A DNA stretch of 64,000 nucleotides from a virus (lineage: Duplodnaviria > Caudoviricetes). The position numbers were made by a program, and so were the translations under genes. Positions 9,720 to 62,268 of the stretch are shown here, one piece after another. The number at the start of each line of letters is the position of its first letter. Position 1 is the stretch's first letter. The notes below the pieces were generated by a model. That model did no database searches, was not told the DNA's origin, and saw only the letters and a program-made list of their open reading frames with translations. The stretch is from IMG/VR virus record IMGVR_UViG_3300028887_000075, positions 32,001 through 96,000 of that record. One strand, given 5' to 3'.

Positions 9720-9732
9720 AACCGTGAGTTTA

Positions 9733-10491: not shown

Positions 10492-10494
10492 GGG

Positions 10495-10905: not shown

Positions 10906-10965
10906 CGTTCTAGTATCCGTTATCCTGCACCTTAGTTTATCGGGTAAGGATATCCGGTAAATTGC

Positions 10966-11940
10966 TTAGAGGGCCTTTCGCCACTCGTCGGCGAACCTGG
11001 CGTTCTCCTCGTCGTAGTTGCCCTGGTCATCCTGGTCATCCTCGGAGAAGTCATAGCCTTCACGGTCGGGGGACCAGCCGGGGAAGTGCGACCTGCGGAG
11101 GTACTCGCGGTCGTCGTCCTCCCGGGACAGCCGGGCGGCCTCCGCGGGCCTCTCGTAGCGCAGGATGATGTCCTTGATGAGGCGGTGGCGGACGATGTCC
11201 TCCACGCCGAGCTCTACGAAGCCGATGCGCTTTACTCCGTCGAGCAGCCTCATGGCGTGCGTGAAGCCGGACTCGGTCCTCGCCGGGAGGTCGCACTGCT
11301 CGCTGTCGCCGCAGATGACCATCTTGGAGTTCCTGCCGAGGCGGGTGAGCATCGTCTTCATCTGCGAAATCGTAGTGTTCTGGAACTCGTCGCAGACGAT
11401 GAAGGAGTTCGCCAGGGTGGAGCCGCGGATGTATGCGAGCGGGCACACCTGCACCAGGTCGTAGAAGGACTTGCGTTCCCTTGCGTCCTCCTCCTTCTTC
11501 TCGGCGCGGAGCCTCTTCTTCTCCTTGGCGGAGAGGAGCTGTGGCATCTGCTCCGGTTCGGACAGCTTCTCGTCGCGCCCGCCCTTGATGAGGGATATGG
11601 CGTCATACAGGGGCTGCATGTAGGGTGCCACCTTCTCGTCCATTGTCCCCGGGAGGAAACCGAGTTCCTCGCCGGAAGTGACTACCGGGCGTGTCAGTAC
11701 GAGGCGCTCGAAGTTTCCTGCGTCTATCCCGGCTATCCCCACCCATGTCGCCACGGCGGTCTTCCCGGTGCCTGAAGGTCCGTTCACGAAGATGATGTCG
11801 TTGGAGTTGATTGCGTCCACGAGGTCCTGCTGTCCCTGCGTGCGCGCGTATATCGGCTTGCCCTTCCGGGTCCTGATGATTTCCGAGCCGCGGAATCCGT
11901 TCTCCAGCTCGTCGGCCTTTGCCTGCTGTGCCATGCGCAA
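10966..11940 (-). CDS. phoH: PhoH-family ATPase
   Basis: GPSGTGKT, LGFLPG..EK..PY, LAYIRG.TL, DEFQN, LTRLG, GD.EQ.DL, DIVRH. Confidence 0.95.
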   Translation of the reverse strand: MRMAQQAKADELENGFRGSEIIRTRKGKPIYARTQGQQDLVDAINSNDIIFVNGPSGTGKTAVATWVGIAGIDAGNFERLVLTRPVVTSGEELGFLPGTMDEKVAPYMQPLYDAISLIKGGRDEKLSEPEQMPQLLSAKEKKRLRAEKKEEDARERKSFYDLVQVCPLAYIRGSTLANSFIVCDEFQNTTISQMKTMLTRLGRNSKMVICGDSEQCDLPARTESGFTHAMRLLDGVKRIGFVELGVEDIVRHRLIKDIILRYERPAEAARLSREDDDREYLRRSHFPGWSPDREGYDFSEDDQDDQGNYDEENARFADEWRKAL

Positions 11941-17757: not shown

Positions 17758-19065
17758 ATGTACGGAAAATCCTTAGCACACATAGAGAAAATCAAGTCCG
17801 TCCACCCCATCGAGGGTGCCGACAACATCGAGCGCGTTACCGTTCTCGACTGGAACCTTGTTGCCAAGAAGGGCGAGTTCCAGCCGGGAGACCTGGCACT
17901 CTACGTGGAAATCGGGTCAATCCTCCCGGACGGGCTGGAAGATGCCGACCGTATCCGTGTCAAAGAGCTCGAGAAGATTATCTCCGAGTGGAAGAAGCAC
18001 GAGAAACTTCTGGAGAAGGACGAAGAAAGATGTGTTGAGCCACGTACGGCCCCGGACCTCCCGGTAACAAGGGAGGCTGCCGAGAAGGAAATGGCCGAAA
18101 TCCAGCAGAAGTCCAAGTACCCCTATTTCGAGTTCCTCCGCCCGAAGAAGTTCCGCATCAAGACGATGAACCTCACCAAGTTCGACGTCATCTCCCAGGG
18201 CATCCTGTTCCGTCTCGACGTTGTCGGCATAGACCCTTCCGAGGCGAAAATCGGTGCGGACTTTACCGAGCGCTTCGGAATTACCGAGGAAATCGAGGAT
18301 GCCGAGGAGGCCGGCCTTACCGCCAAGCCTCTCTGGGGTCCGTTCAAGTGGTTCGACAAGAAGCTGATGCGATACAGGTGGTACCGCGACTGGAAGAAGG
18401 CACGTGCCGAGAAGGCCGAGTGGTTCAACTGGTTCCCCGCCAAGTCCGACGAGGAGAACGCCCAGAAGATTTACTCCGGTCTGTACGAGCAGTACGGCGA
18501 CAGGCGCTGGGTGGCCACCGAGAAGCTCGAGGGCCAGTCAATCGCGATTTGCTCCCGGGAAGTGAAGGGGCTGTTCGGGAAGAAAAAGAAGATTTACGTC
18601 GCCTCCCGCACCAGGAACCTCCCGTGGAAGGGATGCTCCACCATGAAGTTCTGGCAAACCGTCAAGAAGCTCGGCCTCGACGAGAAAATCAAGTCTATAC
18701 CGGGAGAATGGTTCTGCCGCGGCGAGCATGTCGGTGAGGGAATCCAGAAGAACATCTACGGGCTCCACGGGAACCTCATCAGGTTCTACGACATCATCCC
18801 GTTCGACAAGGAGAAGGGCAAGTTCTGCGGGAAGTTGGCATACGAGGATACGGTCAGGTTCTGCGAGAAGTACGACCTCCCGTACGTCCCGGTGATTGAC
18901 GACGACTTCCGCCTGCCGGCCGACGTGCAGGACATGCTGAAGATTTCCATCGGGACCACCGTGTTCGGGAACAACCCCAAGCACGAGCGCGAAGGACTTG
19001 TGCTCCGCCTGTACGACAACTACGACGTTTCGTTCAAGGCGAAGTCACCGACCTACAAACTATAG
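17758..19065 (+). CDS. ATP-dependent RNA ligase (DRB0094-like, N-terminal OB domain)
   Basis: HPIEGADNIE N-domain, TEKLEG, RGE..G.GIQ.N, REGLV, SFKAKS. Confidence 0.88.
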   Translation: MYGKSLAHIEKIKSVHPIEGADNIERVTVLDWNLVAKKGEFQPGDLALYVEIGSILPDGLEDADRIRVKELEKIISEWKKHEKLLEKDEERCVEPRTAPDLPVTREAAEKEMAEIQQKSKYPYFEFLRPKKFRIKTMNLTKFDVISQGILFRLDVVGIDPSEAKIGADFTERFGITEEIEDAEEAGLTAKPLWGPFKWFDKKLMRYRWYRDWKKARAEKAEWFNWFPAKSDEENAQKIYSGLYEQYGDRRWVATEKLEGQSIAICSREVKGLFGKKKKIYVASRTRNLPWKGCSTMKFWQTVKKLGLDEKIKSIPGEWFCRGEHVGEGIQKNIYGLHGNLIRFYDIIPFDKEKGKFCGKLAYEDTVRFCEKYDLPYVPVIDDDFRLPADVQDMLKISIGTTVFGNNPKHEREGLVLRLYDNYDVSFKAKSPTYKL

Positions 19066-26033: not shown

Positions 26034-27182
26034 TTGACCATAGAGGAACTTGAAAGGACCGGCTGGATTGAAATGGAAGCCATAGTGGGCAGCCAGTCGT
26101 TCGGGCTGGCTACCGAGAACTCCGACGTGGACACGCGCGGGGTCTTCGTGCTGCCCATTCGCGAGCGTATCGCCTACGGGGCGATAGACCAGGTGGCAGA
26201 CGAGAAGAACAACAGGGTGTTTTGGGAGATGGCGAAGTTCCTGAAGCTGCTAAGGGATGGCAACCCGTCCGCGCTTGAGTTCCTCAATTCCCCGGAAAAA
26301 TGCATACTGAAGGGAAAGGAAATGTTCGACCTTATCCCGAAGGACATCTGGGTCACCCCCAAGTGCCGCCAGTCCTTCCTGGAGTATGCCAGGAACCAGC
26401 TGTCCCGTGCATACGGGCTAAACAAGAAGATTTTCAACCCGCAGCCGACTGAACCTCCCAGGGTCCTCGACTACTGCTACGTGGTTACCCGGGAGAAGCC
26501 CCCGGTGGCCTTCCGGAAGTTCCTCGTGATGCAGCCGGAGAGGTTCATGCGTGAGCAGAAGTGGTACGCGCTCGCCAGCCTGGACCACATCACGGACGGC
26601 TACGGGCTGTACTGGCAGGACCCCATGTCCGGCTCCTCCGAGAAGGAGCACGAGTGGCGCTGGGCCTACGGCGTGGTGAGCGACGAGGCGAAGGCCAACG
26701 ACATCCAGCTCGCCCCGCACATCCCGCAGGGGCTGCTGCCGGTGGCCACCCTGTTCTTCAACAAGAACGCCTACTCGCACGACTGCGCGGAGCATACCAA
26801 GTACTGGCACTGGGTCAAGGAGCGTAACGAGTCCCGCTACGAGGAGACCCTGAAGCACGGCAAGGGATATGACGCCAAGAACACCATGCACTGCATCAGG
26901 CTGCTGATGACCGCGAAGGAACTGGCAGAGACCGGGAAGGTACGGGTCGACCGTAGCAATGACCGGGAGTTCCTATTGGGGATAAAGGCGGGCAAGTATT
27001 CCTACGAGGAGATGATGTCACTTTCCGACCGACTGGTGAAGGAGACCGGGGAGGCGTTCGAAAAAACCCGGTGGCTCCGGCCGGTAATGACCGACGGAGA
27101 GCTCAGCGAGCTGCTGTGCAGGATTCTGCGGACAATGGAACCGAAATACAACATGATTTTAACCCGGCATGAGGATTTATGA
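26034..27182 (+). CDS. Pol-beta-superfamily nucleotidyltransferase (RlaP/YcgL-like)
   Basis: GSQSFGLATENSDVDTRGVF, GNPSALE, GYDAKN.MHCIRL. Confidence 0.85.
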   Translation: MTIEELERTGWIEMEAIVGSQSFGLATENSDVDTRGVFVLPIRERIAYGAIDQVADEKNNRVFWEMAKFLKLLRDGNPSALEFLNSPEKCILKGKEMFDLIPKDIWVTPKCRQSFLEYARNQLSRAYGLNKKIFNPQPTEPPRVLDYCYVVTREKPPVAFRKFLVMQPERFMREQKWYALASLDHITDGYGLYWQDPMSGSSEKEHEWRWAYGVVSDEAKANDIQLAPHIPQGLLPVATLFFNKNAYSHDCAEHTKYWHWVKERNESRYEETLKHGKGYDAKNTMHCIRLLMTAKELAETGKVRVDRSNDREFLLGIKAGKYSYEEMMSLSDRLVKETGEAFEKTRWLRPVMTDGELSELLCRILRTMEPKYNMILTRHEDL

Positions 27183-27580
27183 GTGGAAACCGAACAGCAG
27201 ATATAGGAAACCTTCTCAAGAACTACGGGCAGAAGCAGGTGCTGCTGGAACTTGAGTCCCTGGTCAACCAGTACAAGCGGCACGACTCACTGAAGCCCGG
27301 CATATATACATGCGGAGTAATCGCGGGAGTTACCGGGATATATTGCCCGGTGTCGTTCATACTGGAGGCCAGGATGTCCGTGGTCGCTATGCTCGGCATC
27401 ATGTGCATTGTTTCCCTGTGCATAATATTTGCACTCTGTGCCATTACGAATCGCAGACTGTCCAAGTCTACGATACAAACGAGAATCATAGCACTGGCAC
27501 AGAAGCTGGAGGACCCGACATTAAGAGAACTATATACTAATTTCGGAAAGTATCCCAATAGCTGTGTGAGCCTTCTATGA
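27179..27580 (+). CDS. Two-TM membrane protein
   Basis: Two hydrophobic segments. Confidence 0.5.
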   Translation: MSGNRTADIGNLLKNYGQKQVLLELESLVNQYKRHDSLKPGIYTCGVIAGVTGIYCPVSFILEARMSVVAMLGIMCIVSLCIIFALCAITNRRLSKSTIQTRIIALAQKLEDPTLRELYTNFGKYPNSCVSLL

Positions 27581-28263
27581 GCACTGAAAGAACATTCTTC
27601 GACATAGACCTCCCGGGCACTGCCCGGCTATTCTTCGTGTCCGACACGCACTTCGGCCACAGGCGCCTCGTCACGTCCTGCCCGACGCACTTCGAGAGGT
27701 GCCGCCGGTACGAGACAGTGGACGAGATGAATGCCGACATCATGGAGAAGTGGAACGCCCAGGTAGCCCCCGGTGACTACGTGGTGTTCCTCGGGGACTT
27801 CCTGTTCGGAAAGTGGGAAGAGGGGGAGATGGATGCGGCAGACCTGTGGAATAGGCTCAACGGAATCAAGTTCTTCGTACGCGGCAACCATGACCAGAGA
27901 ATCAAGGGAGAGATAATCGACATCAGGGACTATGCCATGTTCAGGTACCGTGGTCTTACCTACCTGTGCCAGCACTTTCCTTATGGAAACGGGCCGGACA
28001 GCGACATGTCCATACTGGGACACCTGAAGTCCACGTTGAGACCGGAGACTACCGTATTGGTGCACGGCCACACCCACTTCGAGGACAGGTACTCCCGGAC
28101 GCTCCGAAAGGACTTCTCGTTGCAGAACGACGTGTCCTGGGAGGCATGGTACGGGATGGCCCCGGCGGAGAAACTATATGCAGCCAACAGGACATACGTG
28201 GGCAAGTGCCTGGGGCACCCGGTGGTGGCCAACTTCTCAAAGGAGTGCTCAGATGAGCAGTAG
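27577..28263 (+). CDS. Calcineurin-like phosphoesterase
   Basis: SDTHFGH, LGDF, RGNHD, HFP, HGHTH. Confidence 0.88.
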   Translation: MSTERTFFDIDLPGTARLFFVSDTHFGHRRLVTSCPTHFERCRRYETVDEMNADIMEKWNAQVAPGDYVVFLGDFLFGKWEEGEMDAADLWNRLNGIKFFVRGNHDQRIKGEIIDIRDYAMFRYRGLTYLCQHFPYGNGPDSDMSILGHLKSTLRPETTVLVHGHTHFEDRYSRTLRKDFSLQNDVSWEAWYGMAPAEKLYAANRTYVGKCLGHPVVANFSKECSDEQ

Positions 28264-29212: not shown

Positions 29213-29325
29213 GCTGCTGCAGTACGGTAATTGCGCTTATAATAGGCGCAATAATGGTTGCTGTGGCGATAGTGGCAGGTGCCATCGAGTTTGTACTTGG
29301 ATTGCTAATGGCAATCTTCGCGTGA
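29209..29325 (+). CDS. 38-aa hydrophobic peptide (not in ORF track)
   Basis: MSCCSTVIALIIGAIMVAVAIVAGAIEFVLGLLMAIFA; ATGA overlap with upstream stop. Confidence 0.5.
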   Translation: MSCCSTVIALIIGAIMVAVAIVAGAIEFVLGLLMAIFA

Positions 29326-29394
29326 TTATTTTGGGTATGTCAACCCAAAGTGTTGCTATTGCATAATCAAAAAATAAATTGCTATATTTGCAAT

Positions 29395-29465
29395 AGGCTA
29401 ACTCCCGTTCATTTCGTAGCGAAAAATGCCTGAGCAACAACTTGGGTGGACAAAGCCATTATTTT
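29395..29465 (+). ncRNA. Candidate ~70-nt structured small RNA
   Basis: Own class A promoter (29379); GGCT/AGCC closing stem, internal hairpins, ends in T-tract; no plausible ORF. Confidence 0.4.
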
Positions 29466-29488
29466 TTGCTATATTTGGAGAAACAACT

Positions 29489-29605
29489 AGCAGGGGGACA
29501 TTTCGTTGTGCGTATGTCCTTAAATGAGGGTCCGACGGCGGGGTCGGCTGCTGGCAGACGTGCCAGATGAGCCGGATACCCAACGCCCATTAGAAAAACC
29601 CTGCT
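29489..29605 (+). ncRNA. Candidate ~120-nt structured RNA or leader
   Basis: Class A promoter (29466); AGCAGGG/CCCTGCT closing stem, GGACAT/ATGTCC hairpin, long nested hairpin 29537-29587. Confidence 0.55.
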
Positions 29606-33663: not shown

Positions 33664-33718
33664 GGCCTGAAACTACTCCATATTCCGCGGAACGGCGATT
33701 TTTTGCTATATTTGTGGC

Positions 33719-34219
33719 ATGCGGTTCATGAAGTACATACTGCTCCTGGCATCCCTGGCACTGTCGGCCGAATACGGGATGATGTCCGTCTGCACCAGGC
33801 TGGACGGGCACGAGTACTGCTATACCGCCGAGAGCAGGTATGTCGCCATAGAGATTGGGGGAACCCTCCTCGTGGCCAACGGGTTCAACCACCAGAAGTT
33901 CTTCCAGGCCGGGAAGGATACTACCTTCTACAACAAGGACAGCATCATGATATGGTACGCCCCGATGAAGGACGAGGACTCTACCTTGTTCCTCGTCCAC
34001 GAGTTCCGGGACGACGATGCACACGGCAAGACAAAGAACCTGTGGATTTCCGATACCACAGGGTGCGTCACAGTGAAGTACGCCGGGGGCAACCGGGAGA
34101 ACTACGACAGGTTCTACCGGAGCTTCCGGGTGGACACGATGGAACACGAGTTGATGCTTATAGGCAAGTGCCAGGACAAGAGATATGGAAAACAGCCCGA
34201 AAAAATTACCAAGCCTTGA
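33719..34219 (+). CDS. Secreted hypothetical protein, probably leaderless
   Basis: Signal peptide MKYILLLASLALSA; ATG 4 nt after class A motif. Confidence 0.6.
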   Translation: MRFMKYILLLASLALSAEYGMMSVCTRLDGHEYCYTAESRYVAIEIGGTLLVANGFNHQKFFQAGKDTTFYNKDSIMIWYAPMKDEDSTLFLVHEFRDDDAHGKTKNLWISDTTGCVTVKYAGGNRENYDRFYRSFRVDTMEHELMLIGKCQDKRYGKQPEKITKP

Positions 34220-35378
34220 CGAGTACCTGAAGGAGGCCGAGGGACCCTGCCTGAACAAGACGGTGTCCCCGGACGGCAAGTACGTCAAGTTCAAGTATAC
34301 CGACCACTGCACCTACTCGATGGGGTGGAACGAGGTGACCCTGCATGCCAGGGGGCACGTGTTCCGCCTTTCCGACGGCAAGTGCGTACTCCGTCCCTGG
34401 GACAAGTTCTTCAACTACGGGGAACTGTTCGGTCAGGACGGGAAACCCACCCAGCTGTACAAATTGCTCGACGATACTCCGGACATGCGCCCCGAGCGTG
34501 CCCTGCAGGGCCCGTTTACGGCCACCGAGAAGTTCGACGGCTCGCTCTGCATAGCGGGCATCGTGGATGGTGCACTTCTGTGCACTAGTTCCGGGTCGTT
34601 CACCGCGTGGCAGGCGGAGTGGGCCAGTGACTGGCTCGAGCGCAACAACGTAGACAAGTGCATGCGCGAGGGAATGACCTACCTGTTCGAGATTATCGCC
34701 GATGCCGACCTGCATCCTATCCGTTATGCCTTCGAAGGCTGTGTATTGCTCGGAATCATCGACAACGATACCGGTATCGAGCTCCCGTATGACGAACTTA
34801 TGGATTTCGGACCGCCACTCCACCTGCCGGTAACTCCCAGGACCTTCTGCGTGAACCTCAACGACGCCATGTCATATGTAAGGAACCTCCCGAAGACACA
34901 GGAAGGCCTCGTGGTGACATACCCGTCCGGATTCAAGCTGAAGCTTAAGGGGCCGGAGTTCCTGAAGATACAGAAGGTGTTCCACAGCCTGTCCGAGAAG
35001 AGTCTCCTGGAGGCGTTCGATTATCACAGGGGAGACTTCCCTGCTGATATACGGGAAGTTGTACCGGAGGAGTTCAAGGACCTCTGGGCTTTCATGAACA
35101 ACTTCAAGGCCGACTACGAGATGAACCTGTGCATGTGCCTGGGATACAGGGCATATGCTATTGCCCACGAGTATACCCCCAGGGAAGTATGGGATGGGGC
35201 AAACCGGGTATTCACTGGGAGGAGCCGGTTAATCGGGGCGGCCACGGCAGCAGCGAAAGTCAAGTGTATCGACGACCCGTTTCTCCATTCCATATGGAAA
35301 ATTGTATATGACGCCATGGTCAAGGAATGGAAGGACAAGAAGGACAACAAGGACAACAAGGAAGTTAGCAATGGCTAA
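34185..35378 (+). CDS. T4 Rnl1-like RNA ligase
   Basis: ARG..F, KFFNYGE, TEKFDGS, TYLFEI, EGLVV, KLK. Confidence 0.88.
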   Translation: MENSPKKLPSLDEYLKEAEGPCLNKTVSPDGKYVKFKYTDHCTYSMGWNEVTLHARGHVFRLSDGKCVLRPWDKFFNYGELFGQDGKPTQLYKLLDDTPDMRPERALQGPFTATEKFDGSLCIAGIVDGALLCTSSGSFTAWQAEWASDWLERNNVDKCMREGMTYLFEIIADADLHPIRYAFEGCVLLGIIDNDTGIELPYDELMDFGPPLHLPVTPRTFCVNLNDAMSYVRNLPKTQEGLVVTYPSGFKLKLKGPEFLKIQKVFHSLSEKSLLEAFDYHRGDFPADIREVVPEEFKDLWAFMNNFKADYEMNLCMCLGYRAYAIAHEYTPREVWDGANRVFTGRSRLIGAATAAAKVKCIDDPFLHSIWKIVYDAMVKEWKDKKDNKDNKEVSNG

Positions 35379-36597
35379 TCACTTACCGCAAATCATCGAG
35401 TATCTCAGCGACAACGACTTCTACAAGTATACCATGGGGCAGATGTTCGTGCACCAGTTCCCCGACGCAACCTGCGAGTGGACCTACAAGAACCGCGACC
35501 CCGAGCGCAAGTTCACAAGGGAGATGATTGACGAAATAAACTACCAGATTGACCTGTACTCCAAGCTCCGCTATACCGAGTGGGAACTCGATCAGTTCGC
35601 AAAGATTCCGTTCATCAAGGGCGACTACGTGAACTTCCTCCGCAGGTACACTGTAGACCGCAGCCACATCACCTGCGAGTTCGACGAGCAGACCGAGCAG
35701 CCGGTAATCCATTTCCGCGGCTACAACGTGGACGAGAGCTACCACGAGGTGCCGGTGATGGCCATCGTGTCCGAGGTGTGGTTCCGCATGACCTACAGCG
35801 AGGAGCAGCAGGCGGCAATCATCGCCGACGCCAAGGCCAGGTTCAGCGAGAAGCTGGATTCCCTCATCTCCGGCAAGGTCAAGCTCGGGGCGTTCTCCGA
35901 GTTCGGTACCCGCCGGAGGTTCTGCCGGGAGTTCCAGGAATGGGCCGTGGACGAATTGATGAAGTACAAATTCGACGGGACCAAGTATGTAGGCACGTCC
36001 AACGTGTACATCTCCTTCGTGAAGGGGACTTCCCCGAAGGGCACGATGGCCCACGAGGCCAACGAGCTTGTCGGCCAGGGATATCCTTTCCATAACCCGT
36101 CATACTCCAACTACTACCTGATGAAGGCGTGGATTAAGGAATACGGTGTACAGAACGGCATCTTCCTTACTGACTGCATCACCACCGACTGCTTCCTGAA
36201 GGACTTCGACATAACGTACGCTACGCTCTTCAGCGGTCTCCGCCACGATTCCGGCGACCCGATGGAGTGGGGCGAGAAGATGCTCTCCCACTACCAGAAG
36301 CTCGGCATCGACACAAGGACAAAAACCCTCCTGTTCAGCGACAGCCTGGACTTCCAGCGCGCCGAGGTGATATACCAGAGGTTCTCGCTCCGTTGCGGCG
36401 TCGCGTTCGGAATCGGCACGTGGCTCCTGAACGACACAGGGCACTTCAAGGCAATGAACCAGGTAATCAAGCTCACCGAGGTCAACGGAATCCCGGTATG
36501 CAAGATTTCGGACGCTCCCGGCAAGTTCATGGGGAAATCCGAGGAGTACCGCAACTACCTCCAGCGGGCAATCGACTGGCGAGTGAACCACGGATAA
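35371..36597 (+). CDS. pncB: Nicotinate phosphoribosyltransferase
   Basis: DNDFYKYTM, EFGTRRR, GTSNV, GTMAHE, RHDSGDP, FSDSLD, FGIGT, KISDAPGK. Confidence 0.93.
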   Translation: MANHLPQIIEYLSDNDFYKYTMGQMFVHQFPDATCEWTYKNRDPERKFTREMIDEINYQIDLYSKLRYTEWELDQFAKIPFIKGDYVNFLRRYTVDRSHITCEFDEQTEQPVIHFRGYNVDESYHEVPVMAIVSEVWFRMTYSEEQQAAIIADAKARFSEKLDSLISGKVKLGAFSEFGTRRRFCREFQEWAVDELMKYKFDGTKYVGTSNVYISFVKGTSPKGTMAHEANELVGQGYPFHNPSYSNYYLMKAWIKEYGVQNGIFLTDCITTDCFLKDFDITYATLFSGLRHDSGDPMEWGEKMLSHYQKLGIDTRTKTLLFSDSLDFQRAEVIYQRFSLRCGVAFGIGTWLLNDTGHFKAMNQVIKLTEVNGIPVCKISDAPGKFMGKSEEYRNYLQRAIDWRVNHG

Positions 36598-36617
36598 TTG
36601 CTATATTTGGAAGCAAC

Positions 36618-37805
36618 ATGGATAACAAGAAGCATACATTGGTTTACGGTGGCGCCTTCGACCCGCCCACCGTTGCCCACGAGGCGATAATCCGCGACCT
36701 GGTCCGCATGGCCGAGGTTTCGGGCGATACCAGAATCCTAATCTACGTCACCGACAACGACGAGAAGAAGTATTCCGCCCAGGTCGCCGACCGCGTAAAC
36801 ATGGTGAAGGCCATGCTGCGGACGATGCGAATCTATGCCGGGACAATAACGCTGAGCCCGGAAGGCATGGACATAGACGTACTGCCGCAGAAGAACAGGC
36901 TGTACAAACAGCTAGGCATCGACCACCTGCTTGACGGGTCGGCGACGGTATGCCTCGGAATGGACGAGTGGGATGACCTGTGCATGGGTGCCCGCGGGGC
37001 GTTCCGCATTGCCAACGGTACCATCCAGTGCATAAGCCAATGGGACAGTCCGGCCGAACTTGCCGAGAAGGTATGTTTCCGCATATACTCCAGGGACCGC
37101 CAGAAGCAACCGGAGTACACCCCGAAGACCCTGGGGGTCGACTACGTGCCCATCCCGATACCGCCGGCATCGTCCACGGAGGCAAGGAAGACTCTCGGGT
37201 TCAGCCCGTTCGCCGCCCCCGCGGAAATCCCCCCGAGCGTAAGGGAATACATCTCGCTTCACCGGCTGTACGGGCAGGAGCGCATGCTTGACCACATGTC
37301 CGAGGAACGCGAGTTCCTTAGGCTGTACTCTGCGAAGGACTTCCCGAAGCCATCGGTTACTGCCACGGTGGTCATCCATAACGACCGCCAGGTACTCCTG
37401 GTCAGGAGGAAGGCTCCCCCGTTCAAGGGATACTGGTGCTTCCCCGGAGGCTTCTCGGAGCCGTTCGAGGACATCGAGGAAGTTGGACTCAGGGAGCTCC
37501 GGGAGGAGACCTGGATTGAATCCAGGCTGCCGGTAACCCACCTGGGCGTATACACCCCGGACGACCCCAGGGTATCCCGGGAGAGGGGCGAGTGGGCGTA
37601 CGACGTCGCGCTCGAGATAGACATTGGCTCCGATGTCACCCCGGTCGCGAAGGCGGGCGACGACGCGGCCGACGTGAAGTGGGTGGACTTCGAGGACATG
37701 GACAGGGTAGACCTGGCGTTCCACCACCGCAAGATATGGAATGTTTTCAACAGCAACCGTGGCGGAATCACGGTGAATCCGGTTCCGCGCACGATACCGG
37801 TATAG
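36618..37805 (+). CDS. nadD: NadD-type adenylyltransferase fused to ADP-ribose-type Nudix hydrolase
   Basis: GGAFDPPTVAH, G.D, SSTEAR, V.EYI..HRLY; Nudix box GG..EPFEDIEEVGLRELREET, AGDDA, LAFHH. Confidence 0.88.
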   Translation: MDNKKHTLVYGGAFDPPTVAHEAIIRDLVRMAEVSGDTRILIYVTDNDEKKYSAQVADRVNMVKAMLRTMRIYAGTITLSPEGMDIDVLPQKNRLYKQLGIDHLLDGSATVCLGMDEWDDLCMGARGAFRIANGTIQCISQWDSPAELAEKVCFRIYSRDRQKQPEYTPKTLGVDYVPIPIPPASSTEARKTLGFSPFAAPAEIPPSVREYISLHRLYGQERMLDHMSEEREFLRLYSAKDFPKPSVTATVVIHNDRQVLLVRRKAPPFKGYWCFPGGFSEPFEDIEEVGLRELREETWIESRLPVTHLGVYTPDDPRVSRERGEWAYDVALEIDIGSDVTPVAKAGDDAADVKWVDFEDMDRVDLAFHHRKIWNVFNSNRGGITVNPVPRTIPV

Positions 37806-37817
37806 GATGGTACTGCA

Positions 37818-38417
37818 ATGCACATAGACAAGAACAACAAGGAAATACTCGTAGTCGTCGACATGCAGAACGACTTCATCGACGGGGTACTCGAGAACCC
37901 CGCGGCCAAGCGCATCGTTCCCGCCGTAGTGGAGGAAATCCGCCGGTGGGAGGGGAAGGTGGTAGCCACCCGAGACACACACTTCGCCGACGGATTCTCC
38001 GATTCCATCGAGGGAAAGCGCCTGCCGATGCATTGCGAGTACGGTACGCACGGCTGGGAAATCGAGAAGAGCGTGGACAAGGCTCTCCGGGACCAGTGCG
38101 CCACGTTCGTCGACAAGCACAACTTCGGCTTCATCGACTGGCCGAAGGTGCTGTTCGGCATAGATTCCACCGACCAGGACGCGGTCGCCGCGCTCACTGC
38201 CGGGAAGAACATCAGAATCAGGTTCCTGGGCACCTGCACGGACATATGCGACCTGTCCAACGTGGCAATATGCCGTACGTGGTTCCCGGATGCGGTAATC
38301 GAGGTGGTCGAGGGTGCCACCGCCGCGTCGTTCGACGACGCCAACCAGAAGGCCGCCCTCGACATGTGCCGCTCGATGCTGTGTGACGTGGTGCCTACCG
38401 TCTACGAGGAGAAATAA
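37818..38417 (+). CDS. pncA: Nicotinamidase
   Basis: VVDMQNDF, TRDTH, HC..GT.GW, DK..FG, GTCTDIC. Confidence 0.9.
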   Translation: MHIDKNNKEILVVVDMQNDFIDGVLENPAAKRIVPAVVEEIRRWEGKVVATRDTHFADGFSDSIEGKRLPMHCEYGTHGWEIEKSVDKALRDQCATFVDKHNFGFIDWPKVLFGIDSTDQDAVAALTAGKNIRIRFLGTCTDICDLSNVAICRTWFPDAVIEVVEGATAASFDDANQKAALDMCRSMLCDVVPTVYEEK

Positions 38418-38419
38418 CA

Positions 38420-38602
38420 ATGTTCGGCGTATTCAAGAGAAACCAGGATGGTACCGAGGAACTTGTCGCCCGCTCCGGCGACTGGCTCAAGGCGCACGAC
38501 TACGCCGATTCGCTAAACGAGGACCGGAATGGTCCGGATGGTGCAACCTACCAAGTGAAGGAAGTGGAAAATGCTTCGAACGCTGTCATTGTTCAGGATT
38601 GA
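38420..38602 (+). CDS. 60-aa hypothetical protein inside the NAD cluster
   Basis: GAGGAG RBS, between pncA and nadE. Confidence 0.55.
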   Translation: MFGVFKRNQDGTEELVARSGDWLKAHDYADSLNEDRNGPDGATYQVKEVENASNAVIVQD

Positions 38603-39401
38603 AACCCCGGAAGCTGCCGCGGATACCGCCCGGAAGATTACGGAATGGATAAGGAAGTACTTCGAGACTACCCGAGGTACCCATGCGGTACTCGGGATGT
38701 CCGGGGGAAAGGACTCGACCATCTGCGCGAAGCTTCTTGTGGACGCGCTCGGGCCTGGCCGGGTGATTGGGGTGTTCATGCCCAACTGGGGACAGGCGGA
38801 CCTGTCCGACGCGCTCGACGCGGCGAAGGCGGCAGGCCTTACCAGGACAATGATGCTCGACATAGGCGGAGCATACGACGCCGTGGTGAATGGACTGGCT
38901 ATGGCCGGTACCGAGATAGACCGCGGGGGAAGGGCCGGCATCAACCTGGCTCCCCGCATCCGAATGGTTCACCTGTATGCCGTCGCCCAGTCGTTCGTCG
39001 ATGGCCGCGTATGCTGCACCGGCAACCTCTCTGAGGCGATGGTTGGATACTGCACCCTGTACGGCGACCTGGCAGGAGACTTCGCACCGCTTGCCGAGCT
39101 GTTCAAGGAGGATGTCTGCCTGCTAGGCAAGGCTCTAGGGCTGCCGGGCAGTCTGGTGGACAAGGTGCCGAGCGACGGGCTCAGCGGGCTTACCGACGAG
39201 GATAACCTCGGGTTTACATACGGCGACATCCGGAAGTTCTGCCTCGGCGAGATGGACATGACCTCCGAACTGGCTGCACGAATCTCCACGAAGATGAGCG
39301 CGGCTAGGTTCAAGATGGACATTGTGAGGATTCCCCGGTGGATGCCGGAAGTGTCCGAGCCGGAAGTTCCATCGTTGGTCACGTATACTTCGGCTGACTG
39401 A
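38571..39401 (+). CDS. nadE: Ammonia-dependent NAD+ synthetase
   Basis: GMSGGKDS, N..PRIRM..LY, TGNLSE..VGY.T.YGD, PSDGL..TDEDNLG; no glutaminase domain. Confidence 0.93.
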   Translation: MLRTLSLFRIETPEAAADTARKITEWIRKYFETTRGTHAVLGMSGGKDSTICAKLLVDALGPGRVIGVFMPNWGQADLSDALDAAKAAGLTRTMMLDIGGAYDAVVNGLAMAGTEIDRGGRAGINLAPRIRMVHLYAVAQSFVDGRVCCTGNLSEAMVGYCTLYGDLAGDFAPLAELFKEDVCLLGKALGLPGSLVDKVPSDGLSGLTDEDNLGFTYGDIRKFCLGEMDMTSELAARISTKMSAARFKMDIVRIPRWMPEVSEPEVPSLVTYTSAD

Positions 39402-39444
39402 GGCGACACGGACGGCGCAACCTATTCGCTCAAGGAAATCGAGA

Positions 39445-39942
39445 ATGCCTCAAATACAAAAGACGACAAGTAATATCCCAGAAAAGAAAGACCTCCGCGA
39501 ATGGTTCTACCGGTACCGGGTGCACTATGATGTGGGCTACCGGAACACGGTCGGATTCGGTTCTGATACGATAGAGCAGAAATTCCATGACCTCATAGGA
39601 GAAGCGCGGGACAAGCTGCATGCGTTATATAGGCTACCTGCGCCTAACATTATCATGCTTAACTGCATGCGGCCTATATATTTCTGTGGATGGTATGCTA
39701 CTGTAGACTTCCTTGAATGGGGACCGAACAGGACCAACAGAAACTGGCCGCATGATGTCGAAGTAGTCGACCGGCTGGTCAACTATGTCGTCGAGGGAAT
39801 GGGCGGGAAGGTAACCAACCGCGAACTGTTCGAGATGCCGATTGAACTCAAGGACGCAAGTGCCCGGCTGCTGCTTCCCTTGCAGAAGGAACAGCCGGAT
39901 ACCCAACCGGAGATTACCGAAGATGAAAACTCGCCTTTCTAG
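39445..39942 (+). CDS. Hypothetical protein
   Basis: ORF in + strand gene run. Confidence 0.6.
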   Translation: MPQIQKTTSNIPEKKDLREWFYRYRVHYDVGYRNTVGFGSDTIEQKFHDLIGEARDKLHALYRLPAPNIIMLNCMRPIYFCGWYATVDFLEWGPNRTNRNWPHDVEVVDRLVNYVVEGMGGKVTNRELFEMPIELKDASARLLLPLQKEQPDTQPEITEDENSPF

Positions 39943-43708: not shown

Positions 43709-43891
43709 ATGAACGTGATGATTATAGCCCTGGTACTGTTCACTACCGCGATGTTCGTCCTGTTCCTGATGGGCAGGCGATGCAAGCACGAGTGGCAGAA
43801 CATCCACCACATGGAGAAGGACGGGAAGTGCACCTATATCCAGCAGTGCAAGAAGTGCGGGAAGCTGAGGAAGGAAGAATTCGATGATTGA
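43709..43891 (+). CDS. Small TM + zinc-ribbon protein
   Basis: TM helix, CKHEW...CKKCG. Confidence 0.55.
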   Translation: MNVMIIALVLFTTAMFVLFLMGRRCKHEWQNIHHMEKDGKCTYIQQCKKCGKLRKEEFDD

Positions 43892-44393
43892 CGTTACCGA
43901 CAAATATGCGTTCTTCTACACTGAATGGCCTTCCAACTTCAAGCAGTGCCGCTTCGAGTACACCAGCATGTTCACCGGCGAAACCCGGGAATTCTTCTGT
44001 ACGGAACAGGCTTTCATGTGGGAGAAGGCCAACAAGTTCGGGGATTTCGACACCGCCGAGAAGATTATGCGGGCGGAAACTCCGATGACCGCCAAGGAAC
44101 TTGGACGTATAGTCAAGCCGTTCAGAACCGAAGACTGGGAACAGGTCAGATACGATGTCATGTACCGGGTAAACCTCGAGAAGTACCGGCAGAACGCCGA
44201 ATTGAGAGAAAAGCTTCTTGACCCCAGGTTCGACGGGAAGACCTTCGTCGAGGCAAGCCCGTACGATTCCATATGGGGTATCTGTCTTCCGAAGGGTTGC
44301 GACGAGCTTAATGATGAACAGAACTGGAAAGGAAGAAATTTGCTAGGGAAGGTAATTACTGATGTTAGAAACAAACTTAAAGATGAATCCTAA
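43884..44393 (+). CDS. NADAR (YbiA-like) family hydrolase
   Basis: SNF, EQAFMWEKA..FGD, AKELGR.V, VEASPYD.IWGI, G.NLLGK. Confidence 0.92.
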   Translation: MIDVTDKYAFFYTEWPSNFKQCRFEYTSMFTGETREFFCTEQAFMWEKANKFGDFDTAEKIMRAETPMTAKELGRIVKPFRTEDWEQVRYDVMYRVNLEKYRQNAELREKLLDPRFDGKTFVEASPYDSIWGICLPKGCDELNDEQNWKGRNLLGKVITDVRNKLKDES

Positions 44394-45543
44394 GGCAAAG
44401 CCGGAATTCGACTATCTTATGGTAGGCGCCGGGCTGTTCAACGCTGTACTGACCGCTAAGTTCGTGGCAGCAGGCAAGAAGGTGCTCGTCGTCGAGCGCC
44501 GCAAGGTCGTAGGCGGAAACTGCTACACTTATGACGATGACGGTATAACAGTCCACAAGTACGGGGCCCACATATTCCACACCTCCAACCGGGACGTATG
44601 GGATTTCGCCAACAAGTATGCCGATTTCCACCCGTTCGTCAACTCGCCAATCGCGATGGTCGATACCCCGAATGGAACCCAGGCATGGAACCTCCCGTTC
44701 AACATGAACACCCTTACCCGCTTCGACCCGGCTTGCCTTACACCTGCAGATGCCGAGCACCTGCTGGCTGAACTGCGTGCCCCTTTCTACAAGGACCACT
44801 ACGATAACCTCGAGGAGAAGGCCCTGTCGATGGTCGGGCTCGGAATATACGACATGTTCATCAGGGGATATACCGAGAAGCAGTGGGGAAAGCCATGCGA
44901 CGAGCTTCCCCCGGAAATCATCACGAGAATCCCGGTGCGCACCACGTATGACAACAACTACTTCAACGACGACTACCAGGGGATTCCGGTAGGGGGATAC
45001 ACCAGGTGGATTATCAACATGCTGGCCGGGTCTACCGTCCTGACAGGCATGGACTATCTTTCCAACCGGGAGAAGCTGGATTCTTCCGCCCGCATAGTGT
45101 TCTATTCCGGCCGTCCCGACGAGCTGTTCGACTACAAGCTGGGCGAGCTTGAATACCGTGGGCTCCGGTTCGAGACCGAAGATTGCCCCGGGGAGAACTA
45201 CCAGGGAGTCGCCGTGGTCAACTATCCTTCCAAGACCGTGCCATATACCAGGAAGATTGAGCACAGGCACTTCATGTCCCGAACGGAGCAGGCCAGCATC
45301 AAGAGGACCCACACTGTAGTATCCACGGAGTATCCGGTGGCCGCAGCGAAGGGAGACGATGCGTTCTACCCGGTAAATACTACGGAGAACAGGGACAGGT
45401 ATCATGAATACGTGGCGATGAAGCCGGCCAACATGGTATTTACCGGGAGACTGGGACTTAACCGTTACAACGACATGGACGACACAATCGCCCAGGCACT
45501 AGACATGGCGGAGATATTTCTAAATGCGAAAGAAACCAAGTAA
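44383..45543 (+). CDS. glf: UDP-galactopyranose mutase
   Basis: VGAG, GGNCY, HKYGAHIFHT, GYTEKQWG, YFND.YQGIP, EYP, GRLG...Y.DMD. Confidence 0.93.
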   Translation: MNPKAKPEFDYLMVGAGLFNAVLTAKFVAAGKKVLVVERRKVVGGNCYTYDDDGITVHKYGAHIFHTSNRDVWDFANKYADFHPFVNSPIAMVDTPNGTQAWNLPFNMNTLTRFDPACLTPADAEHLLAELRAPFYKDHYDNLEEKALSMVGLGIYDMFIRGYTEKQWGKPCDELPPEIITRIPVRTTYDNNYFNDDYQGIPVGGYTRWIINMLAGSTVLTGMDYLSNREKLDSSARIVFYSGRPDELFDYKLGELEYRGLRFETEDCPGENYQGVAVVNYPSKTVPYTRKIEHRHFMSRTEQASIKRTHTVVSTEYPVAAAKGDDAFYPVNTTENRDRYHEYVAMKPANMVFTGRLGLNRYNDMDDTIAQALDMAEIFLNAKETK

Positions 45544-51781: not shown

Positions 51782-52031
51782 GGAAAGCGCCCGGCTCCGC
51801 GAGGAACGGATTGCCGGGACAGACAACGGCCTCACACTGAGAACCAGGGTCGTGAGGGACAGGAAGAAGTACACCAGGAAGATTAAGCACCGCAAGTCCA
51901 TCGCAGAAGCGATGGATTTCGCTTTATGCGGCAATTTTGCTATATTTGTGGCATGGCTAAGAAGAAAACACAAAAAATCGCTATCTATCCCGGCAGCTTC
52001 GACCCCATCCACCCGGGGCACATGGAAGTAA
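51768..52031 (+). CDS. ArfA-like basic peptide with internal hairpin (candidate ribosome-rescue factor)
   Basis: GGAGG RBS; LRTRVVRDRKKYTRKIKH; 11-bp hairpin 51894-51919 before the stop. Confidence 0.5.
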   Translation: MTRTKESARLREERIAGTDNGLTLRTRVVRDRKKYTRKIKHRKSIAEAMDFALCGNFAIFVAWLRRKHKKSLSIPAASTPSTRGTWK

Positions 52032-52522
52032 TCTTCCAGGCTGCCAAGGTATTCGACAAGGTAATCGTCCTAGTCGCGGACAATCCGGATAAGGACTACA
52101 AGGTTTCCGCAGAAGACCGGGTCAGTCTAATCAAGGAATTCATTAGGCTTTACCGGGACGAGTGTTCCAATGTCACTGTAGACCGTACTTATGACACCCT
52201 GTACGGATACTGCCAGGATAAATCCAAGTATGACCCGGATAACGCAGTCGGGTTCATCGTGCGCGGGATAAGGAACGGAGCTGACCTCGAGTTCGAGCAG
52301 TCGCAAAAGTATTTCGTATCCGTCATGGGCGATGCCTGTCTTTCGCTTACCTATGCATACTTCACTACCAGGCCGGTCATGTCGGTGTTGTCTTCCAGTG
52401 CGCTCCGCCAGGTCATCCAGTTGGCAACCAATGAAGAATTCTGCATGGCATACTGGCCAGACATTCCGGTGGAATCTGAAATGTCGTCCCGTATTTACAA
52501 CATGTACAAGGGGAAATGCTGA
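51953..52522 (+). CDS. coaD: Phosphopantetheine adenylyltransferase
   Basis: AIYPGSFDPIH.GH, V.V..NP.K, IVRGIR...D.EFE, LSSS. Confidence 0.88.
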   Translation: MAKKKTQKIAIYPGSFDPIHPGHMEVIFQAAKVFDKVIVLVADNPDKDYKVSAEDRVSLIKEFIRLYRDECSNVTVDRTYDTLYGYCQDKSKYDPDNAVGFIVRGIRNGADLEFEQSQKYFVSVMGDACLSLTYAYFTTRPVMSVLSSSALRQVIQLATNEEFCMAYWPDIPVESEMSSRIYNMYKGKC

Positions 52523-53334
52523 TGGCCAGATTCATCCTCCTCACCGGAATTATCGGTTCCGGGAAATCATATGTCGCCAACATGCTGCGGGCCAAGCGCT
52601 ATACGGTAGTCGACTCCGATTCGTGGGCAAAGCATCAGTATGAGGACTCCGAAACGTTCAAGATGGTAGTCGAACGTCTTGGACCGATGTGCCTCGATGA
52701 CCATGGGAAGATTGACCTCGGCTACATCAAGCGGTACATCCTCCGGCATGACCCGGACGACCGTGACCTGTTTACCTGGGGACTGGCCACAAGGGTAGCC
52801 GACGGCATATTGACCATGTTCGGCGGCCTGAAGGAAATCGTGTTCGTCGAGGCTGCCCCGACCGCCCAGGTAGGCCACATGTGCAACTACCTCGGCATAG
52901 ACACGGCAATCGTGGTAAAGCGCAATCACACCATCCGCCGGCAGTTCCTGATGGATACCCGGGCGATGTCCGGCGGAGATATCGACGCATTCGAAAATCT
53001 CCAGGACCTGAGCTATATCCACCGGACATACGACAGAAATCGCCGGGATGTCAAGAAGGTGATACTAGACAACGACCTTGCTCCGGAAGCTTTAAACGGG
53101 CAGCTTATGGACATCATCGAGAAGGATATCCAGCCTACCCCGGAAGAGAAGTTCGCACTATACGAGAGGTACCTCCGGGAGTCTCCCGACTACTGCAAGC
53201 AGAACGCCATGTGCTACTCGTTCTACAACCTGGGCGGTTGCAACAACTGCCCGTTCCCCTGCTCGCAGCAGGACCGGAACTTCGAAAGGGCGAACCGGGA
53301 ATTCATGAAGGAAAAGAAGGGAACCAATGATTAA
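52516..53334 (+). CDS. coaE: Dephospho-CoA kinase with Cys-rich C-terminal extension
   Basis: LTGIIGSGKS.VA, VVDSD..A, G.ID; C-terminal C..AMC...GCNNCPFPC. Confidence 0.75.
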   Translation: MLMARFILLTGIIGSGKSYVANMLRAKRYTVVDSDSWAKHQYEDSETFKMVVERLGPMCLDDHGKIDLGYIKRYILRHDPDDRDLFTWGLATRVADGILTMFGGLKEIVFVEAAPTAQVGHMCNYLGIDTAIVVKRNHTIRRQFLMDTRAMSGGDIDAFENLQDLSYIHRTYDRNRRDVKKVILDNDLAPEALNGQLMDIIEKDIQPTPEEKFALYERYLRESPDYCKQNAMCYSFYNLGGCNNCPFPCSQQDRNFERANREFMKEKKGTND

Positions 53335-60990: not shown

Positions 60991-62268
60991 ATGAGCATGA
61001 CCGAAGAACAGCGACTTGCGAAGAACGCTTCAATCAGGGAAGCGATGAAGGCTACGCACGAGAAGCGCAAGTCGCAGGTCTGCCGTGTCTATATGCTGAA
61101 GGTACAGAAGAATGCCTTGTCAGCAAGACAGAAAGAAGACTTCAAGATGCTGTTCGTAGAAGCAAAGTGGCTGTACAACGACATCCTCAATTATGGTTCC
61201 GTTAAGGGGCAGTCCATCTTCGACTACGAGATTGGAAATACAGTAGAGGTTAAGCTTCCGGACGGGACATTCGACGGGCGAAGCCTGGACCATATCGGTT
61301 CGCAGATGAAGCAGTCCGTCTATGCCGACATCAAGGCTTCCATCAAGGCTTTGTCGAAGCTCAAGAAGAATGGATTCAAGGTAGGGAGGCTGAAGTTCAA
61401 GTCCGAAATCGGTGCAGTGTCCTTGAAGCAGTACGGAACGACCTACAAGTTCCATAACGACCACTTGGTAAAGATACAGAATATTCACGGTCTGGTACGA
61501 GTAAACGGTCTCGACCAGATTAAGGACAATGTAGAGTTCGCCAATGCGAAACTCCTCAACAGGGCTGACGGCTACTATCTGGCAGTCACGACCTATACAG
61601 AAAGAAAACCGTATTCCAACCGGCCTCACGCTGATGTCGGTATCGACATGGGTTGTCATACCTCCTTCACCTTTTCAACGGGCGAGGAGATAGACGTCAA
61701 GATTAAGGAACCGGAGCACCTGAAAAGACTGCAACGCAAGCAGAACAGACAGAAGAAGGGCTCCAATGGTCGAAGGCGAACAATCCACAAGATACGGAAA
61801 CAGCATCAGCGGCTGGTTAACCGAAAGAACGACAGGGCTAACAAGATTGTTGCCGACTTAAATAATAGGTTCAGCCTTATATACATCCAGGATGAAAACC
61901 TGTCCGGATGGCAGAAGGACGGACATGGCAAGGCGGTGCAGCACAGTTGCCTTGGACGTGTCAAGGCGAAACTGAAAGCGCAGGATAACGTCTATGTCGT
62001 TGACCGATGGGAACCCACCACGCAGAAGTGCATCAACTGTGGCAAGAAACATCCTATGCCACAGAACGAACGCACTTTCAGGTGTGATTGTGGAATGTGT
62101 ATGCCCAGGGACCTTCATTCGGCTAACCGCATGGTTCAGGAAGGTAGGAAACTAGTACCTCCGGAACGGAGGGAGTTCATGAGCGCTGACTGGTGGACCT
62201 CATATATCCTGCCCTGTCTCGGGCGGGACAAGTCCGCTGGGGTGACGCGCGAAGCTGCCACCCTTTAG
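60991..62268 (+). CDS. tnpB: TnpB RNA-guided nuclease
   Basis: VGIDMG (RuvC-I), TTQKC..CG / C.CG zinc finger, RD.HSA (RuvC-III). Confidence 0.9.
   Translation: MSMTEEQRLAKNASIREAMKATHEKRKSQVCRVYMLKVQKNALSARQKEDFKMLFVEAKWLYNDILNYGSVKGQSIFDYEIGNTVEVKLPDGTFDGRSLDHIGSQMKQSVYADIKASIKALSKLKKNGFKVGRLKFKSEIGAVSLKQYGTTYKFHNDHLVKIQNIHGLVRVNGLDQIKDNVEFANAKLLNRADGYYLAVTTYTERKPYSNRPHADVGIDMGCHTSFTFSTGEEIDVKIKEPEHLKRLQRKQNRQKKGSNGRRRTIHKIRKQHQRLVNRKNDRANKIVADLNNRFSLIYIQDENLSGWQKDGHGKAVQHSCLGRVKAKLKAQDNVYVVDRWEPTTQKCINCGKKHPMPQNERTFRCDCGMCMPRDLHSANRMVQEGRKLVPPERREFMSADWWTSYILPCLGRDKSAGVTREAATL

Follow-up and report, generated by a model that had tools for sequence, protein, structure and literature searches.

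Can a phage rebuild nicotinamide adenine dinucleotide (NAD+) by a long, deamidating route that starts at nicotinamide and passes through nicotinate, and what would such a capacity serve? The question is raised by a stretch of 64,000 nucleotides (hereafter the window), which corresponds to positions 32001-96000 of the 170.7-kb IMG/VR virus record IMGVR_UViG_3300028887_000075. Five open reading frames (ORFs) at 35371-39401, all on the + strand, encode equivalents of PncB, of NadD fused to a Nudix domain, of PncA and of NadE, together with a small protein of 60 residues (orf60). The completeness of the source contig was estimated by CheckV at about 41%, implying a jumbo phage, and the contig is a fragment of such a phage from the ruminant (cattle/sheep) gut. 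In all likelihood, the region is a phage-encoded and complete deamidating NAD+ salvage cassette, with enzyme identities taken from sequence and a chemistry presumed from the respective families. The initial annotation of this DNA had recognised four clustered genes with intact catalytic motifs, the 60-residue ORF between pncA and nadE, and an internal class A promoter before nadD. Profile searches bore out the enzyme identities, which together make up the complete route from nicotinamide through nicotinate, nicotinate mononucleotide (NaMN) and nicotinate adenine dinucleotide (NaAD) to NAD+; the catalytic residues proved to be kept across phage homologues, and the small ORF and the promoter-like motif were found where they had been placed (Table 1).

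PncB is a type I nicotinate phosphoribosyltransferase, an assignment made from sequence according to which it would join nicotinate and phosphoribosyl pyrophosphate (PRPP) to give NaMN. The protein passes two curated cut-offs, those of NF003704 (407 bits, cut-off 379) and TIGR01514 (337 bits, cut-off 269.55), covering model positions 1-396 of 399, and its best match in the PDB is 1YIR, the P. aeruginosa PncB2 (4e-76). It carries the FGTRRR PRPP-binding motif and the GTMAHE histidine (H228), the latter being the phospho-histidine of ATP-coupled enzymes; H228, R181 and R182 are kept in 23 phage homologues and aligned with 1YIR. The protein resembles the phage Nampt family phrog_448 only weakly (5.8e-12), and no second gene of the NAPRTase family was found in the 170-kb fragment of this incomplete genome.

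The step preceding PncB would be catalysed by the PncA-like protein, predicted to convert nicotinamide to nicotinate and ammonia. This protein represents a divergent subfamily (phrog_19305) whose top PDB matches are nicotinamidases (Pyrococcus 1ILW, 4.7e-9; 3PL1). Its catalytic triad D15/K100/C144 and its metal site D53/H55/H72 are both kept in 17 phage homologues, with D53, H55 and H72 aligning with 1ILW. An Asp-His-His metal triad is typical of nicotinamidases, and that of the Pyrococcus horikoshii PncA is formed by D52, H54 and H71. The protein could nevertheless be another hydrolase of the isochorismatase family, in which case nicotinate would be the starting point and the pathway an ordinary Preiss-Handler route: its score against NF008623, the equivalog of E. 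coli-type nicotinamidases, is 18.3 bits and misses the cut-off of 174, and phrog_19305 is a family with no assigned function. Such a reading is very unlikely given that the top solved relatives are nicotinamidases, that the metal-binding D-H-H triad is retained alongside the D-K-C triad, and that in more than ten phage lineages the gene adjoins those of PncB, the NadD fusion and NadE.

At the other end of the route, the single-domain NadE (276 residues) scores 153 bits against TIGR00552, well over the cut-off of 63.65. The PP-loop SGGxDS is kept (S44-G-G-x-D-S49), a glutaminase domain is absent, and the start codon is backed by the homologue of metagenome contig L044, with which the protein aligns from its first residue. 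The protein would thus be predicted to produce NAD+ from NaAD, ATP and NH3. Among PDB entries it is closest to 2E18 of Pyrococcus (3e-29), followed by 3FIU of Francisella tularensis (2.8e-25).

Between these two ends, adenylylation is attributed to the N-terminal domain of the fusion protein, which would combine NaMN or nicotinamide mononucleotide (NMN) with ATP to yield NaAD or NAD+, respectively. The domain aligns with the NadD model TIGR00482 over model positions 1-194 with 46.7 bits, and it is here named NadD-like because this score lies under the equivalog cut-off (112.45). The (H/T)xxH and SxTxxR motifs are present (T18..H21; S186-S-T-x-x-R190), and all of 42 homologues retain T18, H21 and R190. 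The whole chain, an adenylyltransferase followed by a C-terminal Nudix domain, has the two-domain arrangement and the fold of NadM-Nudix/NatV enzymes. An AlphaFold2 model with a mean predicted local distance difference test (pLDDT) score of 86.6 had NadM-Nudix 2QJO, 2QJT and 2R5W as top matches (E 1e-16 to 1e-15), the first adenylyltransferase-only structural match being NadD 1YUM, a NaMN enzyme. Against the NadM-Nudix/NatV model PRK05379 the best score was 70.7 bits, compared with a cut-off of 397, and involved residues 200-370 only. The fusion belongs to a family of more than 170 members, mostly found on metagenomic contigs, many of which reach several hundred kb. The fusion proteins P0001-P0003 share 88-92% identity with it, and NMNAT/Nudix proteins known from cultured jumbo phages are distant relatives (20-27%).

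These relationships bear on the order of the last two reactions. As in Francisella, NadE might act as an NMN synthetase converting NaMN to NMN, with the adenylyltransferase then turning NMN into NAD+ in the manner of NadM-Nudix enzymes. The second-best solved relative of NadE, 3FIU, is presumably an NMN synthetase, the whole fusion is matched best by the NMN adenylyltransferases 2QJO and 2QJT, and the distant relatives in cultured jumbo phages are NMNAT/Nudix proteins. However, the N-terminal domain matches NadD (TIGR00482) and gave no match to the NadM model TIGR01527, among adenylyltransferase-only folds the NaMN enzyme 1YUM ranks first, and NadE itself is closest to 2E18. The Francisella order is considered improbable, and the order in which adenylylation precedes amidation is the more likely one.

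The Nudix domain of the fusion is probably an ADP-ribose pyrophosphatase, judging by its sequence relatives, and would split ADP-ribose (ADPR) into AMP and ribose-5-phosphate. As the initial annotation had it, the domain is fused, and it most resembles the ADP-ribose pyrophosphatase domain of NadM-Nudix enzymes: its best sequence and fold matches are 2QJO and 2QJT, together with the Nudix domain of NrtR with bound ADP-ribose (3GZ8). R292, E293, E296 and E297 are invariant in the 42 homologues, and the box GX5EX7REUXEEXGU is intact except for the last G, which is W here. This substitution, the matches to the NrtR/NtrR regulator family (NF050029, 7.6e-11; 3GZ8, 3GZ5) and the difficulty of inferring substrate range from Nudix sequences would be compatible with a role other than ADP-ribose recycling, for instance on NAD(H)/NaAD, NAD-capped RNA or ADPR-derived immune signals, or as an NrtR-like ligand-sensing regulatory domain. 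Regulators of the NrtR type typically have a degenerate Nudix box, whereas the four catalytic residues are invariant here; moreover, the nearest enzymes are ADP-ribose pyrophosphatases and the fusion contains no DNA-binding domain. Any of these other roles thus appears rather unlikely.

A survey of phage genomes for this synteny, as had been proposed, revealed the cassette to be kept in many jumbo phages. The order PncB, fusion, PncA, NadE was found in the IMG/VR contigs L016, L022, L023, L024/25 and L026/27 and in metagenome contig L044, and the first three genes are retained in L017, L019 and L021. Recurrence of this four-gene order in six or more further phage lineages argues that the pathway is under selection. 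A different arrangement (NadE, PncB, Nudix, PncA) occurs in the cultured Sinorhizobium phage Phosso and in L041 and L042; in Phosso, the Nudix gene and the PncA-like gene are separated by a stand-alone adenylyltransferase gene. The full four-gene set is present in all four relatives of at least 90% completeness, and among the five near-complete relatives, which measure 308-424 kb and include one with direct terminal repeats, the fusion is present in all and NadE in four. Closer to the window, contigs from cattle and sheep gut obtained in three other studies cover 35313-39472 at about 96% identity, with insertions and deletions in intergenic spacers only. No match was obtained when the cassette was compared by megablast with GenBank phages, and a scan of IMG/VR with the single fusion protein returned no relative, while an alignment-based scan did detect relatives.

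The identities of the individual proteins further suggest that pncB was exchanged for the copy of a different phage lineage, the pathway itself remaining complete. The PncB of the window is 73-79% identical to those of L003-L015 and only 30-33% identical to those of L016 and L044, whereas the opposite is seen for PncA (64-70%) and NadE (51-52%), which are closest to L016 and L044 and share about 33% identity with L003-L015. The RNA ligase encoded just upstream of pncB is closest to the same group as PncA and NadE, that is, the group with the 30-33% identical PncB. Replacement of one gene with the pathway left complete would argue for selection acting on the complete route. The downstream edge of the putative pncB replacement falls on the internal promoter-like motif.

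In the proposed scheme, nicotinamide would be deamidated by PncA to nicotinate (first step), which PncB would couple to host-made PRPP to form NaMN (second step). NaMN and ATP would then be converted to NaAD by the NadD-like domain (third step), and the NH3-type NadE would use ATP and NH3 to amidate NaAD to NAD+ (fourth step). In an arrangement like that of NadM-Nudix enzymes and the NatV of phage KVP40, the fused Nudix would most likely hydrolyse ADP-ribose to AMP and ribose-5-phosphate (fifth step), thereby clearing the second product of NAD+ breakdown and sending carbon back towards PRPP. The presumed purpose would be to hold up the NAD+ pool of the infected cell, both for phage enzymes that consume NAD+ and for recovery from NAD+ breakdown, including that caused by host NADase defences. 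From the host, the cassette would draw PRPP, ATP and ammonia. The initial annotation had found no PRPP synthetase gene (prs) in the window, which holds true for it, for the whole 170.7-kb contig (no TIGR01251 match) and for five near-complete relatives; PRPP must therefore be host-derived. Recycling of ADP-ribose through the Nudix domain and the escape of deamidated intermediates from NADases, which were part of the same original proposal, we infer only.

NAD+ is a central battlefield of bacteria and phages, and three routes by which phages rebuild it have been demonstrated from 2024 onwards; the four-enzyme deamidating route is so far a prediction in gut jumbo phages. NARP1 (Adps and Namat) and NARP2 (Nampt and Nmnat/Nudix) were published in 2024, and NARP3, consisting of PnuC and a NadR-like enzyme, in August 2026 (PMC13464706). 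The cassette had been annotated as a candidate third NAD+ reconstitution route, a place that NARP3 already occupies. The pathway had also been thought new, which is largely not the case. A survey of 668 animal-gut jumbo phages described 174 “NAD-jumbo phages” (Microbiome 2024, PMC11662467), reported clusters of pncB, nadD and nadE as a complete Preiss-Handler pathway, mentioned phage pncA, and proposed that phage NAD+ synthesis counters NAD+ depletion, pending experimental verification (PMC11662467). The phage studied here is of that kind, with pncB, the nadD-like gene and nadE clustered within 4 kb, as in those gut jumbo phages of cattle, sheep and other animals. It departs from the published description in that the pathway was defined there from nicotinate and with three genes, whereas PncA is here a syntenic fourth member, and in that the adenylyltransferase is a NadD-like/Nudix fusion. 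As PncA is an integral part of the gene order, the input of the route would be nicotinamide. Viral pncA, pncB and nadE had been listed before as auxiliary metabolic genes, and a 2022 survey of viral NAD+/ADPR systems dealt with NadV and NadM or NadR, the deamidating route not being covered. In the literature that was searched, there was no experimental test of a phage deamidating NAD+ route and no phage “NARP4”. What the present analysis adds is the position of PncA as syntenic fourth gene, the NadD-like/Nudix fusion family, and the gene-by-gene replacement within a preserved cassette.

Among the experimentally studied systems, a close one is NARP2, represented by NadV/NatV of KVP40. Both would start from nicotinamide and host PRPP, and both have an adenylyltransferase-Nudix fusion with a NadM-Nudix-like fold. 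The logic of the cassette would be that of NARP2 with Nampt exchanged for PncA and PncB, and with NadE added. No Nampt was found in the 170-kb fragment (an incomplete genome), where the only gene of the NAPRTase family is the type I PncB; the two additional enzymes would direct flux by way of nicotinate, NaMN and NaAD; the fusion begins with a domain that is NadD-like instead of NadM-like; and function is predicted from the genes. NARP1 and NARP3 share with the cassette the phage-encoded rebuilding of NAD+ in answer to its depletion. NARP1 differs in using ADP-ribose pyrophosphate (ADPR-PP) as substrate, and the fragment contains neither a Prs/Adps-like gene (TIGR01251) nor a second NAPRTase/Namat-like gene. 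NARP3 differs in importing nicotinamide riboside, with no PnuC gene (PF04973) present in the fragment and the only other CTP_transf_like gene being CoaD-like. Bacterial pncA-pncB-nadE(-nadD) operons under NrtR, such as P. aeruginosa PA4918-4920, present the same enzymes and chemistry and a linked Nudix of the NrtR/ADPR-pyrophosphatase type. Unlike these operons, the genes described here lie on a phage and are accompanied by promoter-like motifs, the catalytic residues of the Nudix are kept, and the Nudix is fused to an adenylyltransferase instead of a DNA-binding domain.

Regarding what the cassette is for, one explanation would be cofactor supply alone, with NAD+ provided for phage enzymes and for the long and costly infection of a jumbo phage, and no specific role against NADases. 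Four of the five near-complete relatives encode a LigA-type NAD-dependent DNA ligase, and the phage itself encodes proteins resembling CoaD and CoaE, which complete the synthesis of coenzyme A (CoA), from which it can be argued that a general supply of cofactors explains the cassette without any defence role and is a reason for it no less good than counter-defence. In addition, NARP2 of KVP40 raised NAD+ even in cells without a defence system (Osterman study). This explanation is a substantial possibility that falls somewhat short of an even chance. It leaves aside, however, that the pathway would start at nicotinamide and includes a putative ADP-ribose hydrolase, that is, it deals with both products of NADase effectors, and that closely analogous salvage pairs do overcome such defences: Thoeris, DSR and Sir2-HerA are all defeated by ordinary salvage enzymes that phages express (NARP2, NARP3). 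The genes for RNA repair and for a NADAR protein in the vicinity of the cassette would also fit a role in counter-defence. Cofactor supply and counter-defence can coexist, and both are regarded here as likely; a contribution of the cassette to the defeat of NAD-depleting systems is suggested by analogy.

Several points weigh against a complete, defence-related deamidating pathway. The LigA-type ligases and the CoaD/CoaE-like genes just mentioned are among them. The PncA-like and NadD-like proteins fall under the NCBIfam equivalog cut-offs (18 versus 174 and 46.7 versus 112 bits, respectively), for which reason their substrates are assigned from motifs and gene company. A preference for NaMN or NMN is not a property that can be read from sequence, the rebuilding of NAD+ “from both cleavage products” needs a host Prs, since prs was not found, and the route is longer than NARP2 and costlier in ATP. 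Nevertheless, the cassette is a real, conserved and complete module and a good candidate for a fourth, deamidating NAD+ reconstitution route.

A bolder version of this proposal can be put forward only tentatively, and doubt prevails. According to it, the cassette would be a true fourth route, deamidating and fed by nicotinamide only, that rescues phages from TIR, SIR2 and also the ADP-ribose-spoiling RES-type NADases, and PncA plus NadE would form a portable “deamidation by-pass” also attached to NARP1-like pairs. The idea of a portable by-pass derives from the human gut phage Phass-1 (L048, OQ749652.1), where positions 6992-11430 encode PncA-like, Prs/Adps-like and Nampt/Namat-like proteins, an ORF of 139 residues and NadE, annotated as hypothetical and accompanied by no adenylyltransferase. 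This cluster resembles a NARP1-type pair with a deamidase on one side and an amidating enzyme on the other, and may be a deamidated NARP1 in which nicotinate and ADPR-PP would give NaAD and then NAD+. The design of the cassette is compact, with about 4 kb taking nicotinamide in and giving NAD+ out, and an ADP-ribose hydrolase attached. If its counter-defence role is true, a fourth route, one that works whatever the condition of the ADP-ribose moiety, would be added to those known; if not, jumbo phages would carry NAD synthesis mainly for their own enzymes.

The cassette is part of a run of six closely packed genes on the + strand, at 34185-39401, the first of which encodes a T4 RnlA/gp63-like RNA ligase (Table 1). 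The 3' end of this gene shares 8 nt with the start of pncB, and the RNA ligase is a kept upstream neighbour of the cassette, being found upstream of PncB also in L016 and L044.

Table 1. Coordinates of the cassette genes and of associated features (window numbering).
Feature	Position	Strand	Evidence and remarks
Promoter-like motif TTGCTATATTTG	33703..33714	+	Exact copy; ATG 4 nt on, at 33719; heads the orf166 - RNA ligase - PncB unit (predicted)
T4 RnlA/gp63-like RNA ligase	34185..35378	+	RNA_lig_T4_1 1e-12; phrog_562 2.4e-38; TIGR02308 3.9e-10, under cut-off
PncB, type I nicotinate phosphoribosyltransferase	35371..36597	+	NF003704; TIGR01514; NAPRTase_N and NAPRTase domains; PDB 1YIR
Internal promoter-like motif TTGCTATATTTG	36598..36609	+	Abuts the pncB stop codon; 8 nt 5' of the fusion-gene ATG
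NadD-like/Nudix fusion gene	36618..37805	+	NUDIX 9e-20; CTP_transf_like 1e-4
NadD-like nucleotidyltransferase domain of the fusion	36618..37277	+	CTP_transf_like 1e-4; TIGR00482 46.7 bits
Nudix domain of the fusion	37353..37733	+	NUDIX 9.2e-20; probable ADP-ribose pyrophosphatase
PncA-type nicotinamidase (predicted)	37818..38417	+	Isochorismatase (PF00857) 1.7e-13; phrog_19305 2.2e-27
orf60, small phage protein, 60 residues	38420..38602	+	No Pfam, PHROG or NCBIfam match
NadE, NH3-dependent NAD+ synthetase, single domain, 276 residues (predicted)	38571..39401	+	TIGR00552 153 bits; NAD_synthase 2.2e-45
NADAR-domain (YbiA-like) protein, context only	43884..44393	+	PF08719 1.7e-40; TIGR02464 138 bits (cut-off 73.7)

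The motif TTGCTATATTTG is a real recurring signal of promoter-like character in this phage, its role as a promoter being predicted. The first 11 bases occur in 14 exact copies and the full 12-mer in 13, every one of them on the + strand with the - strand free of copies, and 19 matches with up to two mismatches were counted against 2.3 expected. An ORF starts 4-60 nt downstream in at least eight cases. The motif contains TAnnTTTG, the -7 element of Bacteroidota-type promoters; a scan for sigma-70-type promoter sites and terminators gave none above chance. The copy directly after pncB likely divides the cassette into two units, one with orf166, the RNA ligase gene and pncB, and the other with the fusion gene, pncA, orf60 and nadE. 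From the positions of the motif, pncB would be transcribed with the upstream T4-type RNA ligase gene and the remaining genes from the copy just after pncB. Two further copies lie 87 nt apart at 29379-29477, in a region without a long ORF (about 29213-29600), a stretch that may code for a small RNA or for a very short protein.

The possibility that the genes represent bacterial contamination or the flank of a prophage was considered and rejected. The record is that of a virus, phage-specific promoter motifs extend across the cassette, and complete jumbo phages of up to 424 kb carry these genes too.

Within the cassette, orf60 is a real small gene that does not belong to the pathway and is a lineage-specific insertion. 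Its 3' end shares 32 nt with the beginning of nadE, and no frameshift was found in it in the strains from the three other studies. Its relatives are five small proteins of 50-66 residues with 44-98% identity (P0121, P0122, P0124, P0126, P0127), four of which have the motif ...DYAxSLNEDxxxPDGAxY... in common with it. An orf60 between PncA and NadE is not present in L044, L016 or L023, pncA and nadE abutting each other in the nearest cassettes. Matches in the Atlas were below 0.9 and unnamed, some of the look-alike clusters being recorded as viral, and a SPOR-like fold is a weak lead. Matches to large Ig-repeat or helicase proteins appear spurious and were set aside.

Other features of the window touch on related functions. 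The NADAR-domain gene sits 4.5 kb downstream of the cassette and is followed by a gene for UDP-galactopyranose mutase (44362-45543). Genes of the RNA-repair type are found at 17758-19065, 26034-27182, 27577-28263 and 34185-35378, and the set comprises two RNA ligases (one with PHA02142 OB and RNA_ligase matches and the T4 RnlA-like one), an RlaP nucleotidyltransferase of the pol-beta family and a metallophosphoesterase. This group fits with the mending of tRNA cut by host nucleases. The CoaD-like gene (TIGR01510, 97.9 bits, narrowly missing the cut-off of 103.3) and the CoaE-like gene lie at 51953-53334, starting 4 nt after a copy of the promoter-like motif, and are a second cofactor-finishing module of the same phage. 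Finally, a TnpB/Cas12f-like protein with OrfB_IS605 and Cas12f1-like TNB domains is encoded at 60991-62268.

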